Source: an uncultured Chromatiaceae bacterium
Lineage (GTDB): Bacteria > Pseudomonadota > Gammaproteobacteria > Chromatiales > Chromatiaceae
Assembly: GCA_964583605.1 (NCBI GenBank)
Contig: CAZOWL010000006.1
Coordinates: 14,976 to 78,975, forward strand
DNA length: 64,000 nucleotides
Reading direction: 5' to 3'
Part shown: positions 9,777 to 50,512 of the stretch, piece after piece
Layout of the letters: every line of letters begins with the position of its first letter
Position numbering within the stretch: the stretch's first letter is position 1
The notes under the pieces: model-generated
Told to the model about the DNA's origin: nothing
Seen by the model: the letters and a program-made list of their open reading frames with translations, nothing else
Databases searched by the model: none
Translations under genes and position numbers: made by a program

Positions 9777-9898
9777 CTAACGATCATGGGGCGAGGCGAG
9801 CCACCCCGGACGATGAAATGTCGCCTCGCCCCTGATCGTTCCCTCACCCCAACCCTCTCCCAGAGGGCGAGGGAGCGAACGTGCTTCGCGAATTTCAT
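9777..9898 (+). repeat. MITE-like repeat, full copy (used here as reference)
   Basis: CTAACGATCATGGGGCGAGGCGA-(loop)-TCGCCTCGCCCCTGATCG forms a ~17-bp stem. It is followed by GTTCCCTCACCCCAACCCTCTCCCAGAGGGCGAGGGAGCGAAC (second hairpin) and GTGCTTCGCGAATTTCAT. Confidence 0.9.
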
Positions 9899-42117: not shown

Positions 42118-42642
42118 ATGAGAAACATTATTGCACTGTCCACGACGATCCTAGCCCTGCTTGCCTCGGCGACCGCTTCGGCCGAGCTACGCCCGGGCGG
42201 CCCCGTTTGGTCAGCCGAGGGGCGCATCGACCGCCGCATCGAGCTCATGACCGAGCGGCTCGATTTGACGGCCGAGCAGCAGGCGGAGATACGCGACATC
42301 CTCGAGGCGCAGGCCCTGACGAGGAGGGAGCAGCGCGCGGCCGTTCGTCAGCAGATCGAGGCCGTGCTGACCAACGAGCAGCTCGCGATGCGCGATGAGG
42401 AGATAGCCAGACGTGTCGACCGGCGGGTGGCGCGCCTCGCCGATCGTCTCGGGCTTAGCGCCGAGCAGGAGGCCGAAGTGCGGACCCTGATGGGCGAGCC
42501 CAGCGATCCGGCCGACTGGGATCGCGGCGCGATGCGCGAGCGCCTGGCTGGCATACTGAGTGACGATCAGCTGGCGCAGCTCGACGCGATGGGTACCCGT
42601 CGCGGCTATCGCGATGGCCGCGCAGGCGGGTGCGCACGCTAG
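42118..42642 (+). CDS. Periplasmic Spy/CpxP-family (LTxxQ-repeat) stress protein
   Basis: ATG after AAGGAG. Signal peptide MRNIIALSTTILALLASATASA. LTxxQ-type repeats (LDLTAEQQAEIRDIL, VLTNEQLAMRDEE, LGLSAEQEAEVRTLM, LSDDQLAQLDAM). Confidence 0.75.
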   Translation: MRNIIALSTTILALLASATASAELRPGGPVWSAEGRIDRRIELMTERLDLTAEQQAEIRDILEAQALTRREQRAAVRQQIEAVLTNEQLAMRDEEIARRVDRRVARLADRLGLSAEQEAEVRTLMGEPSDPADWDRGAMRERLAGILSDDQLAQLDAMGTRRGYRDGRAGGCAR

Positions 42643-42711
42643 CCGATCCGTCGACGAGCGAGCCCAGAGAGGGCCGCTCGTTCACGCCGCGCTGCGCAAT
42701 CGAGGTGCTCG

Positions 42712-44202
42712 TTGAGCCTGTCCATCCGTACCAAGCTGTTCCTGACGTTGCTGATCGCAGGCACCCTGGCCGTGGTAGCCACGCACGCATTCGTTTACTG
42801 GTCATTTCGTCACGGATTGATGGAGCTTGCCGAGGCCCGCCAGCGGGACCGGCTGGGGCTGATCCGTGAGCGCCTCACGGAGCGGTTCCGAGAGGACCAC
42901 AGCTGGAAGCGGCTCGCCGAGGATCGGGCGCTATGGCTTGCGGCGTTGGCCGGGCATGGCGACGCACCCGGTCCGCGACACCGCTTCCGTCACCACCTTG
43001 TGCCTGAGGCGCCGAATGGCGGCTCCGGCATCCAGCGGTATCCTCGGCAGGACGCGCCCGGGGTGTGGCCCCCGTCACGCGTCCTGAGACGGGCTCGTGG
43101 CGCGGAGGGTCGGCCGCTGCCGCTCGAGATGCGGCTCATGTTGCTCGATGCTACCGGCGAGATCGTCTACGGCCGGCAGGAGCTCCTCCAGAATGCGGTG
43201 CGATTTCCACTGAGGCTGGACGGCGAGCGCATCGGCGAGCTGGCCCTGGTCCCCGGCCCACTGATCCACGAGACAGGGGAGCTGCGTTTCAAGGAGAGCC
43301 AGACCTCGGCCTTCGTCGCGATCGCCCTCGGTATGATCCTGCTCTCCGCGCTCTTCGCGTACCCGCTGTCCGAACGCCTCTCTCGGCCGATCCTGGCCTT
43401 CCGGGATGCGGCACGGCGACTCGCCGATGGTGACTTCGCTGCCCGCGTGCCGACTGACCGCCGCGACGAGCTCGGCCGCCTGGGCCGTGACATCAATACG
43501 CTGGCTGAGACCCTGGAGCAGAACGAGCAGGCGCGTCGCCGCTGGGTCGCGGACATCTCTCACGAGCTGCGCACCCCTTTGGCCCTCTTGCGGGCCGAGC
43601 TCGAGGCCCTGCAGGACGGCGTGCGTCCAATCGAGCGCACCGCCGTGGACTCGCTGCACGCCGATGTGCTGCGCCTGAGCCGACTTGTCGACGACCTCTA
43701 CGAGCTGTCGATGACCGACCTCGGCGCGCTGGCCTACCGTAAGACGGAGACCGATCTGGCCGAGGTCCTGCAGGAGGGGCTGAACGCCTACCGCGCCGAG
43801 CTCGCCGGGGCCGGCCTCGAGCTCGCGCTTGAGAACCGCCTGGGCGAGCCCGTGGTCTTGCAGACAGACCCGCACCGTCTCTCTCAGCTGTTCCGTAATC
43901 TGTTGCGCAACAGCCTCGAGTACACTGACGCTGGTGGCGGTCTTACCGTCACTGTCGGCAAAGAGCTCGATGAGCTGGTCATCGATTTCCAGGACACGGC
44001 CCCGGGAGTGCCGGTGCAGTCGCTGCCACACCTCTTCGAGCGACTCTATCGGGTCGAGGTCTCGCGCAGCCGCAACGCGGGCGGGGCCGGCCTTGGTCTG
44101 GCCATCTGCCGAAACATTGTCGAGGCGCATGGGGGGACCATTCAGGCCCGTCCATCGCCTTACGGCGGACTGTGGATCCGCATTCAGCTGCCCATTGCGT
44201 GA
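42712..44202 (+). CDS. Two-component sensor histidine kinase, BaeS-like
   Basis: Two TM helices, HAMP, a HisKA box WVADISHELRTPLALL and HATPase motifs (NLLRNSLEYT, DTAPGV, GGAGLGLAICRNIVEAHGG). TTG start. Confidence 0.85.
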   Translation: MSLSIRTKLFLTLLIAGTLAVVATHAFVYWSFRHGLMELAEARQRDRLGLIRERLTERFREDHSWKRLAEDRALWLAALAGHGDAPGPRHRFRHHLVPEAPNGGSGIQRYPRQDAPGVWPPSRVLRRARGAEGRPLPLEMRLMLLDATGEIVYGRQELLQNAVRFPLRLDGERIGELALVPGPLIHETGELRFKESQTSAFVAIALGMILLSALFAYPLSERLSRPILAFRDAARRLADGDFAARVPTDRRDELGRLGRDINTLAETLEQNEQARRRWVADISHELRTPLALLRAELEALQDGVRPIERTAVDSLHADVLRLSRLVDDLYELSMTDLGALAYRKTETDLAEVLQEGLNAYRAELAGAGLELALENRLGEPVVLQTDPHRLSQLFRNLLRNSLEYTDAGGGLTVTVGKELDELVIDFQDTAPGVPVQSLPHLFERLYRVEVSRSRNAGGAGLGLAICRNIVEAHGGTIQARPSPYGGLWIRIQLPIA

Positions 44203-44888
44203 TGAGAGACACCATCCTGATCGTCGAAGACGAAGAGCGGCTTGCCGAGGTGCTTGCCGACTATCTCAAGGCGGCCGGCTATGCGACAAACCAGCTCGGC
44301 GATGGGACGCACGCCGTCGCTTGGGTGCGCCAGCACCAGCTGGCCCTGATCCTATTGGACCTGATGCTTCCCGGCCGCAGCGGGCTCGACATCTGCCGAG
44401 ACATCCGGGCCTTCAGCGCAGTGCCAATCATCATGACCACGGCTCGCGTCGAGGAGATCGATCGCCTGCTCGGCCTCGAGCTAGGCGCCGACGACTATGT
44501 CTGCAAGCCCTACAGCCCGCGCGAGGTGGTGGCACGGGTCAAGGCTGTCCTTCGCCGCACTGGTCTCTCTCAGGGGAGTCAACCCGGGTGCCTGACGCTC
44601 GATGCGGACAGCTTACGGGTGCGCAGCGGAGCGCGTGAGGTTGAGCTGACAGCGGTCGAGTTCGCGTTGCTGCGGACCCTGCACTCAGCGCCGGGACGGA
44701 TCTTCTCTCGTGACCGCCTGATACAGCGGATCTACAACGATCATCGGATCGTCTCCGACCGCACGATCGACAGTCACATCAAGAAGCTCCGGCGCAAGCT
44801 TGCGGAACTGGCTCCAGAGCTGGATCTCATCCACTCGGTCTATGGCGTCGGCTATCGCTACGAGGAGCGACCGATGCGAATCGCCTGA
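44202..44888 (+). CDS. OmpR-family response regulator, BaeR-like
   Basis: ILIVEDEERLAEVLADYLKAAGY...LILLDLMLPGRSGLDICRDIRAFSAVPIIMTTARVEEIDRLLGLELGADDYVCKPYSPREVVARVKAVLRR is very close to E. coli BaeR. The start overlaps the kinase stop (TGATG). Confidence 0.85.
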   Translation: MRDTILIVEDEERLAEVLADYLKAAGYATNQLGDGTHAVAWVRQHQLALILLDLMLPGRSGLDICRDIRAFSAVPIIMTTARVEEIDRLLGLELGADDYVCKPYSPREVVARVKAVLRRTGLSQGSQPGCLTLDADSLRVRSGAREVELTAVEFALLRTLHSAPGRIFSRDRLIQRIYNDHRIVSDRTIDSHIKKLRRKLAELAPELDLIHSVYGVGYRYEERPMRIA

Positions 44889-44953
44889 AGACCATGCCAT
44901 TCGCTAGCTTCCTGAGAAGCCCGGCCCGTACACCACTTTCCCTTCCGGACCCA

Positions 44954-45080
44954 TTACAATGAATTTCGCGAAGCACGTTCGCTCCCTCGCCCTCTGGGAG
45001 AGGGTTGGGGTGAGGGAACGATCAAGGGCGAGGCGACCTTTCATCATCTGGGGTGGCTCGCCTCGCCCCATGATCGTTAG
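44954..45080 (-). repeat. MITE-like repeat, full copy (left boundary of the lower-G+C cassette)
   Basis: TTACAATGAATTTCGCGAAGCACGTTCGCTCCCTCGCCCTCTGGGAGAGGGTTGGGGTGAGGGAACGATCAAGGGCGAGGCGA...CTCGCCTCGCCCCATGATCGTTAG. Confidence 0.9.
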
Positions 45081-45099
45081 CAGAAGAATGGAGATACGC

Positions 45100-45795
45100 A
45101 TGACCGTTATAAAGAAGGCTTGGCTCTTGTTGTCTTGTCTATTGTTGCTCATCCTGTTCTATGGCACGGCTTACGCCGAAGGAGCAGCAAGTGCATCCGA
45201 TGAGTCGGCCCAAGCATCGGACACCGACAAGTTCTCAACACGCAGGCCCGTGGTGATCAACTATTTTGGCAAGGTCAATGCCACAAATGCGGGTTATCTC
45301 GCGCGGATCATTCTCGACGAGGTCGCGAACAATAACCGCGACTTCCACATTAACATCAATAGCACTGGCGGCGACCCGGATTCAGGGCTTGCGGCATTCA
45401 ACATCATAGAAAGCCTTCCGGTGACCGTTACGACATTCAACGCCAATGAGGTGCAATCGGCGGCCGTCCATTTATACTGCCTTGGCGAGAGAAAATATGC
45501 CTATCCTGAGTCATTCTTTATGATCCACCCTGTGAAATGGAAGATCGATGATCTAACAATGACCGATATTCAGGCAAAATATCTTCACTCCCAGGTTATC
45601 GATCAACGAATAGGGAATATCGCAGAATCCTGCATGGATATTTCGAGAGACGAAATTCGGGAGTATTTCAACGGCAATCAGGATTTCTACTTCACTGCGG
45701 AGCAGGCGAAGTCGATCGGTCTGGTCGATGAGATATCGAGCAGGAATTTCATTCCGAAAAAGGTCTATTTGGTTTCCGACGACTATCGGGGGTAG
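45100..45795 (+). CDS. Secreted or membrane-anchored ClpP-fold serine protease (NfeD/SDH-type)
   Basis: Signal/anchor MTVIKKAWLLLSCLLLLILFYGTAYA. NINSTGGDPDSGLAAFNII, a catalytic-Ser context ANEVQSAAVHLYCLG and a His context SFFMIHPV follow the ClpP/NfeD order. The gene is conspicuously A/T-richer than all its neighbours. Confidence 0.7.
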   Translation: MTVIKKAWLLLSCLLLLILFYGTAYAEGAASASDESAQASDTDKFSTRRPVVINYFGKVNATNAGYLARIILDEVANNNRDFHININSTGGDPDSGLAAFNIIESLPVTVTTFNANEVQSAAVHLYCLGERKYAYPESFFMIHPVKWKIDDLTMTDIQAKYLHSQVIDQRIGNIAESCMDISRDEIREYFNGNQDFYFTAEQAKSIGLVDEISSRNFIPKKVYLVSDDYRG

Positions 45796-45862
45796 GGCCA
45801 ATGAGAATAGACACAACAGGCCCTATTCTTGGACCTGAACGGGGCCTTCGTCCCGTCACTAC

Positions 45863-45981
45863 CTGACGATCATGGAGCGAGACGAGCCACTCCGGATGAT
45901 GACATATCGCCTCGCCCCCTGATCGTTCCCTCACCCCAGCCCTCTCCCAGAGGGTGAGCGAGCGTGCTTCGCGAGCTCCAT
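45863..45981 (+). repeat. MITE-like repeat, diverged full copy (right boundary of the lower-G+C cassette)
   Basis: CTGACGATCATGGAGCGAGACGA...TCGCCTCGCCCCCTGATCGTTCCCTCACCCCAGCCCTCTCCCAGAGGGTGAGCGAGCGTGCTTCGCGAGCTCCAT. Confidence 0.85.
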
Positions 45982-46390
45982 AGTGAGCGCGGGTCGACGC
46001 TTCCGGCTTACCTATAAGCCGCATCTCTCCTTTGGGACCTCAGCCAGCCTCGCCTAGTACGCTGGTGACACTGAAATCGCGCCTCCATCGCGCAACGACG
46101 CGAAGACGCGTCGGTGTGAAGAAATGGCGGGCTCACTGTGAGCAAGCCAACCCCTGATCCCGAAAAAGACCAACTAAACTGTTTGGAATAGTGGCCGCGG
46201 ATGCCGCTCGAGGCTGGGTCGATCCGTATGCTGGAGCTCCGGGCGACTCGATTGGTGCTTGGCAGCTCCACCAGTGGCGAGAGATCCCGACGTTTCTCTG
46301 CCCTGTTTGCGTTTTCAACCGATGCGTGCTCGCGGTTCGAGCTGAGCGGTCCTTCCCCGAAACCATCCGTAGCGACCGGAGCGTGACGCG

Positions 46391-49300
46391 ATGAGCGATA
46401 GAGACGACGGCCTGGGACTTTCGATCCCCGGCATGGTGGTCGCGGCAACGCTGCTCGGCGTGGTGTTCTTCAAGAGCGTACCGTTGGAGACGACGCGGCC
46501 AGCGCCGGAGGCCCAGCTACCCGATGCGTCGGTGACCGCCGAGCGGGCGCCGGCACGGCTTTGGGAGGATCCGTTCAATGCCGTGTATCGGCATATGCCT
46601 AATACAACAGACAGGCCGGAGGCGCCTGATACCGGCGGCGACCCGCCGGCCAACCCCGACTTCTGCTCCACTGACACCGTCGGCGCGCGGGCAGAGCGGG
46701 TCGACCCGCACGAGGCCTCGGCCCCGCCCTGCATCGCCGACCAGATCGCGCATCGCAACCAGCTCGGGCGCAAGCCGCGCATCCTGGCCGTCATGCTCCC
46801 AGGCGCGACCTCCGTCGAGTCCGGCGAGAACCGCATCCGGCGCCGCTACGCGGTCCTCTCCGCCCTGCACATCGCCGGCTTCGTTCCGGATGACGCAACC
46901 CATATTGGCTGGTTCCGTACGATCCCCGGCTCGGACCTGCCGGCGGTGATCCCCTACGAGTGGATGACCGCCACCGACGGCGCGGCCGACCCGGGCTCGG
47001 TGCTCGTCCTCTGGCTCGACGACACGCCATTTCGCCAACGTCTCCACCGGGGCCTGACCGGTCTGGTGGCCGGCATCCTGCCGAAGGACCAGCTGCCGGC
47101 GGACGGCAAGGTCGATGTGGCGGTGCTTGGGCCGTCGTCGTCCGACGGGCTGGTCGGGCTGCTGCGGGAGGCGGCTGCCATCGCCGCTCCAACAGTGGCA
47201 AGCGGCGCCCAGATGCCGGCCTACGACGCGGGCATGGCTGGCATGATCGGTTTGGCCGGCACGGGCACGATTGGAGCGACCCCCGTCTGGCCAGATCGGG
47301 CGTTCGAGATCCGTCTCGATGTGTACTCGGCAACGGCGACGGCAGCCGACGACGAGTTGTTCGATCGCGCCGGGATCGAAGGCGACGGAAGGACCGTTGC
47401 TGACTATCTGTTTTGCCGCCTCAACCTGGACCTGCACCGCACCATCGCCGACGATCGGGTCTTAGTCGAGATACTCGCCGCGGAGCTGGGCGCCCGTTTC
47501 GATCGGAGCTCCGGACCACTGCTCGGGCTGGCTATCGGCCTGCGCAAGGCAACGTCCGCGGTGCGCGAGGCTACCGTCGATCGTCTGCGCGGCACAATCC
47601 CGCCTGTGGGCTCAGGCAAGGGAGGCAAGCACGTCGTCCTGGTCTCGGAGTGGGACACCGCCTACGGCCGCTCACTGCCGATCAGTCTCTGCAAGGCCCT
47701 CGAGGCCGAGCTCGGTAAGACGACCCCCTGCGCTCACGTCGACCAGCGTGGGGCCGGCTACCCGGCAGGAGAAAGTGAGTCGCAGGGAGGAGCGGACTTG
47801 CCCTGGGTGCATCGCTTCACCTACATGCGCGGCCTCGACGGGACCTTGGGGGCGACCGGGGGGCACGCCGGTGATCACTCGCTTGCCGACGCACTGGCCG
47901 AGTCGGCCCAAGGTACGCCGCAGCTCGACTACCTGCGGCGACTCGCCGGCCGCCTCGTCTCGCTGGAGCGAGGCTTGCCCAGTGGCCACTCGATCGCGGC
48001 TGTGGGTATCCTCGGCAGCGATATACACGACAAGCTGCTCATCCTGCAGGCCCTGCGACCAGCGTTCCAGGGTGCGGTGTTCTTCACGACGGACCTGGAC
48101 GCACGACTCTACGAGCCGGCACAGCTGCAGTGGACACGGGGCCTGGTGGTCGCCACCGGCTTCGGTCTGCAGCTCGAGGGAGCCACGGGTGCGGCGCCGA
48201 CGGGCATCGATTGCCAGGATTCGATCCCGCCGTTTCGCAGCGGCTACCAGACTGCGTTCTTCTACGCGGCGCGCGAGGCGCTCGGTGCCCTACCGGAGGC
48301 CTGCCGACTCGGCACCGAGCCGGGCTATCGCCAGGTTGAGGCAGCCGGCCAGGCGCCAGCGCCGGCCCGGCTGTTCGAGATCGGGCGCACGGGTCCGGTC
48401 GCGCTGATCCCGCCGAGGCCCGCGGGTGACGACCAAGGGGCCGATCCTGCCTCATCCGCGCCGGGCGCTCGTGCCCTTGGTAAGCAGGACACGGGCCAGG
48501 CCCGGCTCAACGCCTGGCTTGACGTACTCCTGCTGCTGGTGATGGGCTGGGGCCTGTTTCTGGTCTTCTACCACCGGCATGTGCCCCTCTGGTGGGGGGC
48601 GCTGGGCCAAAGGCTGCGCCGATCCCCGCTCGGCACCAGCCTCGGCCTGATCCTGGCCCTGTTGGCGCTCGGCGGTCTGTTGGCTTGGCTCTGGCGCGAT
48701 CTGGAGGTGCTCGCCTGTCCCCTTGCCCTCGATGCGACGGCCTGTGCCGAGCCGTTCAGCGTCACCAGCGGCATCAGCATCTGGGCGCCTGTCTACCTGC
48801 AGCTGTTGGCCGTGGTGCTGTCGGCGCTGTTCATCGCCCGCGTGCTGGTGCGGTTTCGCGCCAACATGCTTGGCCTCTCGAGCCGGTATTTCCTTGGCCG
48901 GGGCTGTGGGATCGAAAGACGACCTGCGCCAGCCGGGCTGTGGGCGGCGTCGCATGCGGAGCTGCGGCACTGGGCGCAAGTAGGGCTGCGCTGGCTCCGG
49001 CGTCCGGGCTGGGACCGAGCCGACAGCTTGGCGGATCAGGTCTCGGCGAGGGCCGACACCGCGGCGGATACAGGGCACCCTAGCGAGCCGCTGGATACCG
49101 ACGATGCGCTGAGGCTCTGGCTACAGTACTGTCGGCGATCGCGATTCTGGTGGCGGGTGCTGCGCGTCGTGGCCCTGTCCATCCTGCTGTTCGCTGTCGT
49201 GGTTGCTCTGTATTGGGCGACCGGGGGCGGTGGCAACAGCCCGGTCCGCGATGCTGAGCTCGCCCGGATCTTCCTGGAGCTACGGCTCCTCGGCGTGCTC

Positions 49301-49897
49301 CTCGGCGGCATGCTCGCCTTAGCCGTGCTGGACATCGCGCTGGAGTGCCGGCGCTTCATCGACCAGCTTTCGCGTGCCTCGGTCGCCGAGGAGCCGGCGC
49401 GTTGGCCGAGCCAGGTTGCCGCCGGCTTCCAGGCTAACCTGCACCTGGACCCCGCCCGGCTATCGCCTTGGATCGCGCTCAGCGTGATCTCCGAGCACGC
49501 GGACCTGGTCATGCGCCTGGTAGTCTATCCGCTGATCGTGCTCGTGGTCCTGGTGGTCGCCCGGCTGCCCTGGCTCGACACCACCAGCCTGCCGCCGAGC
49601 ATCCTCATCGTCTACCTGGTCTTCGCCTTCTACATCTTTTTCGTCGCCGTCGGCATCCAACGCGCGGCGAACGGGGCCAAGGCCCGAACCCGCGAGCACT
49701 ACCAGACCCTGCTTGACGGCAACCGGAACGCCCCAGTCGAGGATCCCAAGACCAACACCCAGCTTGAATGTCTGATCCGCCAGGTCTCCGAGCTGCACGA
49801 CGGTGCCTTCAAGCCGCTGCCGGCACGGCCGCTCGTGCGCATGGCGCTGCTGCCGTTCGGGGCGCTTGGGGTGGGGCTGTTGGAGTTGTTCGGCTAA
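46391..49897 (+). CDS. Orphan 1168-aa polytopic membrane protein of unknown function
   Basis: Uninterrupted ORF with native-like G+C. One N-terminal TM (IPGMVVAATLLGVVFF) is followed by a ~650-aa soluble region with alternating strand/helix blocks (RILAVMLPG, VDVAVLGPSSSDG, HVVLVSEWDTAYGRS, AAVGILGSDIHDKLLILQAL, AVFFTTDLDARL). At least 7 further TM helices and a conserved-looking tail (GAFKPLPARPLVRMALLPFGALGVG) follow. I recognise no family motif. Confidence 0.75.
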   Translation: MSDRDDGLGLSIPGMVVAATLLGVVFFKSVPLETTRPAPEAQLPDASVTAERAPARLWEDPFNAVYRHMPNTTDRPEAPDTGGDPPANPDFCSTDTVGARAERVDPHEASAPPCIADQIAHRNQLGRKPRILAVMLPGATSVESGENRIRRRYAVLSALHIAGFVPDDATHIGWFRTIPGSDLPAVIPYEWMTATDGAADPGSVLVLWLDDTPFRQRLHRGLTGLVAGILPKDQLPADGKVDVAVLGPSSSDGLVGLLREAAAIAAPTVASGAQMPAYDAGMAGMIGLAGTGTIGATPVWPDRAFEIRLDVYSATATAADDELFDRAGIEGDGRTVADYLFCRLNLDLHRTIADDRVLVEILAAELGARFDRSSGPLLGLAIGLRKATSAVREATVDRLRGTIPPVGSGKGGKHVVLVSEWDTAYGRSLPISLCKALEAELGKTTPCAHVDQRGAGYPAGESESQGGADLPWVHRFTYMRGLDGTLGATGGHAGDHSLADALAESAQGTPQLDYLRRLAGRLVSLERGLPSGHSIAAVGILGSDIHDKLLILQALRPAFQGAVFFTTDLDARLYEPAQLQWTRGLVVATGFGLQLEGATGAAPTGIDCQDSIPPFRSGYQTAFFYAAREALGALPEACRLGTEPGYRQVEAAGQAPAPARLFEIGRTGPVALIPPRPAGDDQGADPASSAPGARALGKQDTGQARLNAWLDVLLLLVMGWGLFLVFYHRHVPLWWGALGQRLRRSPLGTSLGLILALLALGGLLAWLWRDLEVLACPLALDATACAEPFSVTSGISIWAPVYLQLLAVVLSALFIARVLVRFRANMLGLSSRYFLGRGCGIERRPAPAGLWAASHAELRHWAQVGLRWLRRPGWDRADSLADQVSARADTAADTGHPSEPLDTDDALRLWLQYCRRSRFWWRVLRVVALSILLFAVVVALYWATGGGGNSPVRDAELARIFLELRLLGVLLGGMLALAVLDIALECRRFIDQLSRASVAEEPARWPSQVAAGFQANLHLDPARLSPWIALSVISEHADLVMRLVVYPLIVLVVLVVARLPWLDTTSLPPSILIVYLVFAFYIFFVAVGIQRAANGAKARTREHYQTLLDGNRNAPVEDPKTNTQLECLIRQVSELHDGAFKPLPARPLVRMALLPFGALGVGLLELFG

Positions 49898-50015
49898 CGA
49901 TCATGGGGCGAGGCGAGCCACCCCCGACCATGAAACGTCGCCTCGCCCCTGATCGTTCCCTCACCCCAACCCTCTCCCAGAAGGCGAGGGAGCGAACGTG
50001 CTGCGCGAATTTCAT
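49894..50015 (+). repeat. MITE-like repeat, full copy (first of a tandem pair)
   Basis: CTAACGATCATGGGGCGAGGCGA...TCGCCTCGCCCCTGATCGTTCCCTCACCCCAACCCTCTCCCAGAAGGCGAGGGAGCGAACGTGCTGCGCGAATTTCAT. It contains the TAA stop (49895-49897) of the 1168-aa ORF. Confidence 0.9.
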
Positions 50016-50016
50016 G

Positions 50017-50138
50017 GTAACGATCATGGGGCGAGCCGAGCCACCCCGGATGATGAAAGCTCGCCTCGCCCCTGATCGTTCCCTCACCCCAGCCCTCTCC
50101 CAGAGGGCGTGGGGGCGAACGTGCTTCGCGAGCTTCAT
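50017..50138 (+). repeat. MITE-like repeat, full copy (second of a tandem pair)
   Basis: GTAACGATCATGGGGCGAGCCGA...CTCGCCTCGCCCCTGATCGTTCCCTCACCCCAGCCCTCTCCCAGAGGGCGTGGGGGCGAACGTGCTTCGCGAGCTTCAT. Confidence 0.9.
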
Positions 50139-50512
50139 AGTAGGTGCCGCCGCCACTGGAGACGCTGTTTGATCGCGTGGCCAACGCATGGCGTCAGTGC
50201 AAAATGACACAGAGCGCCGCATATATCTTCGTCACACGTGGATTTGCCGTCGCGATGCATGCCCCTCGCGCCCGATCGCTGTGTTGCGCCTCCTCTCCAT
50301 GGGGCCCGCTACGCCTCGTCGGCACGCCTGGCGCTCGGGCCCGATTGGCGCACCGCGCCTGCCGCAAGAGCCATGCGCGACGGGCATAGCTTTCGAGTAA
50401 CATCTCGGTCGCGGCCGGTTGACGAAGAGCAGCTCGGGTACGCCAGTGGTCTGTCGGCCATTATTGCGTAGCGTCAACGGGCCTCAACGACCATCTTGTG
50501 GAGACCCCACCC

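Follow-up and report, generated by a model that had tools for sequence, protein, structure and literature searches.

A low-G+C gene for a predicted exported ClpP-fold protease between two copies of an abundant repeat in a Chromatiaceae genome

The locus and its protease

The window analysed here is a 64-kb stretch of DNA (contig C6:14976-78975) from the genome of an uncultured Chromatiaceae bacterium, assembled into 4.48 Mb on 167 contigs with 64.8% G+C. In this window, 1.5 kb separates the stop codon of an OmpR-type response-regulator gene (44888) from the start of a gene for an 1168-residue membrane protein (46391). The gap contains, in order, a copy of a short repeat on the minus strand, a 19-nucleotide (nt) spacer, the open reading frame (ORF) of a serine protease, a 67-nt spacer, a second copy of the repeat on the plus strand, and a spacer of ~400 bp. 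The 782-bp segment between the two copies (45081-45862) is likely a horizontally acquired single gene for a predicted exported protease of a small, uncharacterised clade of the ClpP superfamily, flanked by repeats that inserted independently as bystanders. The locus has the following features:

42118..44888, plus strand: genes of an LTXXQ (CpxP/Spy-like) protein, a HAMP histidine kinase and an OmpR-type response regulator, of native composition
44954..45080, minus strand: left repeat copy, 127 nt with two hairpins, resembling a miniature inverted-repeat transposable element (MITE); its CTAAC end lies 19 nt 5' of the start codon
45090..45093, plus strand: GGAG ribosome-binding site, read from the sequence, 6 nt ahead of the ATG at 45100
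45100..45795, plus strand: gene of the ClpP-fold serine peptidase (export predicted), 231 residues, G+C 0.487
45100..45177, plus strand: Sec-type signal peptide, residues 1-26, with predicted cleavage after A-Y-A
45457..45459, plus strand: codon of the catalytic Ser120 (context EVQSAA), which falls on the ClpP nucleophile in alignments and is invariant in 15 family members
45478-45480 and 45631-45633, plus strand: codons of Cys127 and Cys178, invariant across 15 clade members
45526..45528, plus strand: codon of the catalytic His143 (context MIH), aligned to ClpP and invariant in 15 members
45682..45684, plus strand: codon of Asp195 (context QDFYF), aligned to the catalytic Asp of ClpP
45863..45981, plus strand: right repeat copy, 67 nt 3' of the stop codon, with a 4-nt deletion

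The protease starts at the Met encoded at 45100. An alternative in-frame ATG at 45088 would lengthen it by four residues (MEIR). The left repeat copy had been described in an earlier note on this DNA as being in frame with the gene, and an ORF does read through from 44959 to 45795, but this continuity is mechanical only. The frame from 44959 is an artefact of ORF calling, given the GGAG before the ATG at 45100 and relatives that align from that Met. The 47 codons 5' of it are the translation of the repeat itself, which is also found in other places, such as an ORF on contig C12.

The protein matches the Pfam family PF00574 (CLP_protease) with E = 3.8e-19 and 69.7 bits, against a cut-off of 20.2, over positions 21-180 of the 182 of the profile, and this is the only Pfam family reported at E <= 0.01. 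In a phmmer search of the PDB sequences, residues 55-215 align with the ClpPs of many species, and Ser120, His143 and Asp195 fall on the catalytic Ser, His and Asp of solved ClpP structures. The ClpP fold and the Ser (EVQSAA) and His (MIH) contexts that had been proposed are thus borne out by profile and alignment. An AlphaFold model of the monomer, based on a 15-sequence alignment, has a mean predicted local distance difference test (pLDDT) score of 88.7. All of its 50 top-ranking Foldseek matches in the PDB are to ClpP (probability 1.00, target-normalised template-modelling (TM) score 0.74-0.84), and the predicted structure superimposes on ClpP with a root-mean-square deviation (rmsd) of ~1.9 Å over ~170 residues. 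Judging from alignment and model, the handle helix and the Gly-Gly oxyanion region are kept.

The N-terminus, MTVIKKAWLLLSCLLLLILFYGTAYA up to the predicted cleavage site and EG after it, displays a K-K n-region, a 15-residue hydrophobic core and an A-Y-A motif, all read directly from the sequence. In the model, a helix spans residues 3-25 and is followed by a disordered stretch (25-37). The N-terminal signal peptide suspected earlier thus shows the tripartite (n, h, c) layout of a Sec signal, and the relatives of the protein likewise have a signal peptide or a lipobox.

At the equivalog level of NCBIfam, the protein is not recognized as ClpP: it scores 39.5 bits, against a cut-off of 308.6, with TIGR00493, and all nine ClpP-type models remain far below their cut-offs. 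A separate clpP-like housekeeping gene, whose product is 27% identical to the protease, is found on contig C52. Profiles of the S49 and NfeD families give no match at E <= 0.01, and His143 and Asp195 are present instead of a Ser-Lys dyad. The neighbours in the window are mfd, the LTXXQ protein, the histidine kinase, the response regulator, the 1168-residue membrane protein, DUF533 and purL. No AAA+ ATPase gene occurs within ~8 kb on either side of the protease gene and no stomatin gene in the 64-kb window, so that the reported lack of either partner holds. Sequence and model support the product being a ClpP-fold Ser-His-Asp protease with a putative export signal and neither of these partners.

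Base composition, relatives and distribution

The G+C content of the protease gene is 0.487, compared with a genome mean of 0.648 (standard deviation (sd) 0.035 in 700-bp windows), hence z = -4.6, and only 0.1% of the 700-bp windows of the genome are as low. In 300-nt windows, G+C is 0.44-0.50 within the gene versus 0.64-0.72 in the flanking genes. These windowed profiles, with those by codon position, confirm that the gene is A/T-richer than its surroundings, as first noticed. G+C at codon positions 1, 2 and 3 (GC1/GC2/GC3) is 0.48/0.37/0.61, versus medians of 0.69/0.48/0.78 for 2639 long ORFs, with z values of -3.4, -1.9 and -2.0, respectively. Long ORFs with a GC3 as low amount to 4.5%, a figure that is an upper bound because the ORF set includes wrong-frame ORFs with low GC3. 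A 65%-identical relative on another high-G+C contig (L011) displays near-identical values of 0.48/0.37/0.63. The low G+C is therefore real but partly a property of the protein family, and constitutes weaker evidence of recent transfer than it looks.

Relatives of the protease are rare. A word-indexed search of 5.8 billion clustered proteins returned just three of them, 62-67% identical and all on short metagenome contigs. A full HMMER scan of 1.84 billion cluster representatives yielded 157 at E <= 1e-10, of which only 5 reached E <= 1e-30. All of the 14 closest relatives start with a signal peptide or a lipobox. According to a hydrophobicity rule, N-termini resembling signal peptides are present in 11 of the 12 best representatives, the twelfth being narrowly under the threshold (1.98 versus 2.0), in 23 of the 30 best and in 55 of the 150 best, a share that falls with distance. 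Ser120, His143, Gly90-Gly91, Cys127 and Cys178 are invariant in 15 clade members; Asp195 is invariant in the six closest relatives and mostly retained in the wider clade. Five of the 14 closest relatives bear an extra N-terminal region of ~120-150 residues, with weak or faint TPR matches in the two relatives whose precomputed Pfam hits listed any. These sequences form a genuine small clade of ClpP homologues, predicted to be exported and sharing an invariant cysteine pair. Literature searches of a limited library returned no description of exported ClpP homologues.

The relatives' neighbours all differ, and include AAA_14/DUF4143, radical SAM-SPASM, DUF1285, AIM24 and unknown proteins. A conserved gene neighbourhood, considered as a clue to function, was rejected on this ground, and the protease gene is a stand-alone unit. 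Relatives that could be named in a scan of genome contigs belong to a metagenome-assembled genome (MAG) of Competibacteraceae (42% identity) and to a Tannerella MAG (27%). In the former (L031, 2885-4278), two genes 2 kb 3' of the relative, a lipoprotein, look from sequence, without a profile search, like those of a stomatin (SPFH-like) and a short NfeD-like protein; this vicinity is probably coincidental. A DUF1285 gene overlaps the stop codon of the same relative, and the window contains no such genes.

The protease subfamily is present in 2 of 301 genomes, and in 2 of 83 genera, of the same bacterial family; a narrower comparison with 40 relatives gave the same single additional member. The second copy, in a genome of another genus (G006), is 47% identical and is a pseudogene with one TGA and one TAA, in a stretch of 40% G+C. 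At this locus (L002, positions 134-2070; G006:C74, ~17.2-17.8 kb), the pseudogene lies directly 5' of an intact radical SAM/SPASM enzyme of 388 residues and a small ORF, which together could be the remains of a peptide-modification cluster.

Orthologues of the kinase/regulator pair upstream of the protease gene, 59-78% identical, occur across 37 genera of the family, and the pair is vertically inherited. At the five closest orthologous loci the protease gene is absent 3' of the pair, and the downstream genes differ. A wobble-degenerate DNA pattern for the regulator C-terminus found no match in metagenome contigs. Scans for a donor lineage gave no close match in metagenome and viral data, and collections of plasmids and phages contained nothing nearer than ordinary ClpP or head proteases (27-35% identity). 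Because its composition deviates (z = -4.6, GC3 of 0.61 versus 0.78) and its distribution is patchy (2 of 301 genomes), the protease gene was probably acquired horizontally from another lineage, in agreement with the earlier proposal.

The repeat family and the bracketing of the gene

The repeat is a 127-nt non-coding element with sharp boundaries and two strong internal hairpins. In an alignment of 355 full-length copies, conservation falls sharply at both ends. BLAST locates at least 412 loci of at least 70 nt in the genome (205 on the plus strand, 207 on the minus strand), and 496 when hits of at least 50 nt are counted. The true number is above 412, since 83 of the 334 contig ends stop inside a copy; the repeat is the main cause of breaks in the assembly. 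Copies sit between genes, often right next to a stop or start codon. Those in the window are found at positions 9841, 13676, 17263, 23140, 30311, 36392, 44996, 45928, 49958 and 50081. Two tandem copies in the same orientation, at 49894-50140, directly follow the 1168-residue gene and share a TAA junction.

The strong symmetry of the repeat resides in its internal hairpins, and its terminal inverted repeats are weak: by eye, one terminus of the consensus, TAACGATCATG, and the complement of the other end, TTACAATGAAA (the common variant), match at only 7 positions out of 11. In 155 of the 355 copies, one and the same trinucleotide (consensus TAA) stands at both ends, and tandem copies share it; it may equally belong to the element sequence. 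No transposase-bearing parent element with matching ends was found, and no terminal match longer than 19 nt occurs outside the copies, in a 167-contig assembly that could miss one. No Rfam family matches the repeat. At least seven other genomes, from six genera of the family, contain full-length copies that are 85-92% identical, and the 38-nt core hairpin (TCCCTCACCCCAACCCTCTCCCAGAGGGCGAGGG) is found in many more genera. An AT-rich target preference was also considered: the 150-nt flanks of the copies have a mean G+C of 0.639, versus 0.648 for the genome. With flanks merely 1% lower in G+C, a strong preference of this kind is not the explanation for repeats beside low-G+C patches.

The two copies flanking the protease gene are inverted, with their CTAACGATCATGG ends facing it, and are 85-86% identical over ~120 nt. 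Identity to the consensus is 93.7% for the left copy (69th percentile of the 355) and 84.3% for the right copy (6th percentile). This unequal divergence points to separate insertions of different age. Neighbouring repeat pairs 200-2500 bp apart number 67 and come in all four orientations. Nineteen of them are head-to-head like the protease pair, and a search for further cargo, suggested in the earlier note, found DNA of native composition (G+C 0.595-0.703) between the 18 others. Among the pairs within 3 kb, the four orientations are represented by 32, 31, 23 and 17 pairs, head-to-head pairs (23 of 103) not being enriched; pairs less than 500 bp apart are tandem and in the same orientation in 27 cases out of 29. 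That two head-to-head MITE-like copies bound the gene is therefore correct as to coordinates and orientation, but the bracketing is not beyond chance in this genome. Since a family of more than 400 copies brackets many ordinary genes, the repeats are most likely bystanders and not the vehicle of the protease gene, their position being a coincidence of a very repeat-dense genome.

Several observations weigh against a horizontally acquired gene flanked by bystander repeats. The genus is represented by this one genome, and the nearest orthologues of the downstream 1168-residue gene are 58-63% identical and located in different, non-syntenic neighbourhoods. Codon positions 1 and 2 hold more than half of the G+C deficit, which therefore reflects amino-acid composition, and composition alone does not date the transfer. 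The step in composition meets the inner ends of the repeats (0.60/0.51 on the left, 0.51/0.61 on the right); just 19 nt of foreign DNA thus precede the start codon, with no room for a promoter of its own. Repeats stand next to 14 of 68 low-G+C patches, versus 6.9 expected (permutation P ~0.006), and flank both sides of 2 patches, versus 0.2 expected (P ~0.014). Some link between repeats and accessory islets exists, which we read as both accumulating in permissive intergenic gaps. Abundant repeats could also serve as landing pads or homology arms that help single-gene islets to settle. Judging from sequence alone, repeat-adjacent low-G+C patches (C57:2750-3076, C72:3204-3729, C30:5636-5965 and C72:15-632) would encode a BrnT/BrnA-like toxin-antitoxin, an SMR-type small multidrug transporter and a cold-shock-domain/Excalibur-like protein.

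Two alternatives give the repeats a role in the arrival of the gene. In the MITE-mediated capture or mobilisation proposed in the earlier note, the pair would act as composite transposon-like ends, and a transposase supplied in trans would have moved the gene between them into this site. The arrangement itself speaks for such a unit, with inverted copies, the same ends inward, at the exact limits of the low-G+C segment; so do the doubly flanked low-G+C patches (2 versus 0.2 expected in permutations) and the existence of MITE pairs flanking cargo (PMC6382973). It is nevertheless unlikely, and the claim is not supported by the comparison with the other copies. At least 412 copies exist, and the two concerned are just 85% alike, with a very different divergence from the consensus. 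The 18 other head-to-head pairs and 48 pairs in other orientations enclose 200-2500 bp with G+C 0.57-0.71, versus 0.49 here. At the second doubly flanked patch, on contig C57, the copies have the same orientation and one is a 44-nt fragment. The repeat-gene-repeat unit occurs once in the source genome, where no second copy was found, and in none of the 300 other genomes of the family, and the contigs of the gene's relatives contain no repeat beside it. The assembly yielded no parent element whose ends match. The distributions are independent: the repeat is native to the bacterial family and the gene is not. A composite transposon would predict nearly identical ends, a recurring unit and a repeat distributed together with the gene, and these predictions are contradicted.

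Alternatively, the repeats may be portable homology arms, through which RecA recombination installed the gene from a donor of the family having it already bracketed. This is very unlikely, even if full-length copies at 85-92% identity are available in at least seven other genomes of six genera, if the foreign segment ends exactly at repeat copies, and if the unequal divergence of the two copies is compatible with chimeric donor/recipient repeats. Elsewhere in the family, only G006 holds the gene, as a dead copy, and it lacks the repeat; the other genera with the full-length repeat lack the gene, and the known relatives have no repeat nearby. Moreover, arms of 127 nt at ~85-94% identity would be expected to recombine poorly. 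The remaining alternative concerns the gene itself, which could be ancestral, looking foreign only because Asn, Ile, Phe, Tyr and Lys are frequent in the protein, and lost by nearly all relatives. The codon positions lend it some weight: GC1 and GC2, which carry most of the deficit, have the same values (0.48/0.37) in L011, from a high-G+C host, and GC3 (0.61) is only ~2 sd under the genome median. To be left in only 2 of 301 genomes and 2 of 83 genera, an ancestral gene would however need to have been lost independently dozens of times, and the other copy in the family, 47% identical in its 40% G+C stretch, is not orthologue-like. In addition, Asn, Lys and Ile abound in many of the closest clade members, a bias that hints at source organisms of low G+C. 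An ancestral origin is thus highly improbable, and acquisition from another lineage, with the repeats inserting independently, is retained in what follows.

Expression, proposed function and comparison with known systems

A consensus scan of 44600-46500 predicts no sigma-70-like promoter, and no terminator is predicted there on the strand of the protease gene. The gene is on the same strand as the LTXXQ, kinase and regulator genes and starts 211 nt after the regulator stop, 127 nt of this gap being the repeat. Because nothing resembling a promoter is predicted from the regulator gene to the start codon, the simplest possibility is that read-through from the upstream LTXXQ/kinase/regulator operon, across the left repeat, drives the protease gene.

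The precursor would be exported by Sec and cleaved after Ala26 by signal peptidase I, releasing a mature domain of ~205 residues that is predicted to comprise the full ClpP core with the handle helix and the Ser120-His143-Asp195 triad. As this core is complete, the mature protease probably assembles into ClpP-like rings. The periplasm has neither ATP nor an unfoldase; the protease may thus be an ATP-independent, self-compartmentalised peptidase acting on short or unfolded peptides. A disulfide between Cys127 and Cys178 is possible, as expected of an exported protein. The flanking repeats would be two independent insertions of an abundant resident intergenic element with TAA-bearing ends, which did not carry the gene and came to bracket it because both short intergenic flanks were available targets. 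A broader proposal is that the clade represents a class, so far undescribed, of ClpP-type chamber proteases in the periplasm or outside the cell, free of ATP and unfoldase, stabilised by a disulfide and sometimes equipped with a substrate-recruiting TPR-like domain. Here, such a protease would be wired, by read-through across the repeat, into an envelope-stress operon (LTXXQ chaperone, kinase and regulator) as an acquired envelope quality-control protease. We regard this as doubtful.

The textbook case of a protease relying on an ATP-driven unfoldase in the cytoplasm is ClpP. The protein described here resembles ClpP (MEROPS S14, PF00574) in its predicted fold (TM ~0.8, rmsd ~1.9 Å) and in the positions of its triad. 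It differs from ClpP in that a predicted cleavable signal peptide replaces the N-terminal axial-loop region, neither ClpX nor ClpA is encoded nearby and the NCBIfam scores are far below the equivalog cut-offs; furthermore, its clade has the invariant Cys pair, and some members an N-terminal TPR-like domain. The best functional analogy may be with SppA (S49) and long NfeD proteins, which are ATP-independent extracytoplasmic or membrane-bound peptidases of the ClpP superfamily acting on peptides. SppA and NfeD enzymes have a catalytic Ser-Lys dyad and fall into other Pfam families, whereas the protease has a Ser-His-Asp triad, PF00574 as its sole match and no stomatin partner in the window. Similarity to ClpP-related phage head-maturation proteases (NF045542) is weak, with 46.9 bits and E = 2.8e-12, and part of the protease aligns to phage proteins with 29-35% identity. 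This score is, however, under the 120-bit cut-off, a signal peptide is present, and no capsid, portal or terminase genes are found nearby, the neighbours being chromosomal genes.

The repeat shares with the ERIC/IRU, Correia/NEMIS and REP/BIME families a length of ~127 nt, two hairpins, hundreds of copies in both orientations and an intergenic location. In contrast to them, it has no sequence relation, no Rfam match and weak terminal inverted repeats. Class 1 integrons in Acinetobacter are flanked by identical MITE copies in an arrangement "comparable to a composite transposon"; in these MITE-flanked units, including MITE-297 pairs, the repeats on either side are identical, and one and the same unit is found again in several strains or plasmids (PMC6382973). 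The present locus has in common with them two short non-coding repeat copies around a cargo gene, and differs by copies that are 85% alike, by a unique unit and by a repeat that brackets dozens of native genes. This carries a caution for mobile-element biology: with a repeat every ~10 kb, genes between two copies are expected often, and such a position does not show their route of arrival.

What appears mildly novel at this locus is the clade itself, namely ClpP homologues with predicted export signals, no ATPase and an invariant cysteine pair. An exported version of ClpP would need a different mode of working, and automatic annotation would mislabel it as "ATP-dependent". Characterising one member of the clade would show the role of a ClpP chamber where ATP is absent.

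Minor observations concern the 1168-residue gene downstream. No homologue of it was found in 40 relatives, and no DNA similarity is present 5' of the start codons of its nearest orthologues. A conserved ORF of 57-64 residues (MFWTNLILVIAFLAM...WEDD.GGPGPLQWRRARGDR), absent from this genome, lies divergently 5' of the three closest orthologues, at the following positions:

L041, 6617-6811: conserved 57-64-residue ORF
L042, 164-358: conserved 57-64-residue ORF
L043, 127-300: conserved 57-64-residue ORF

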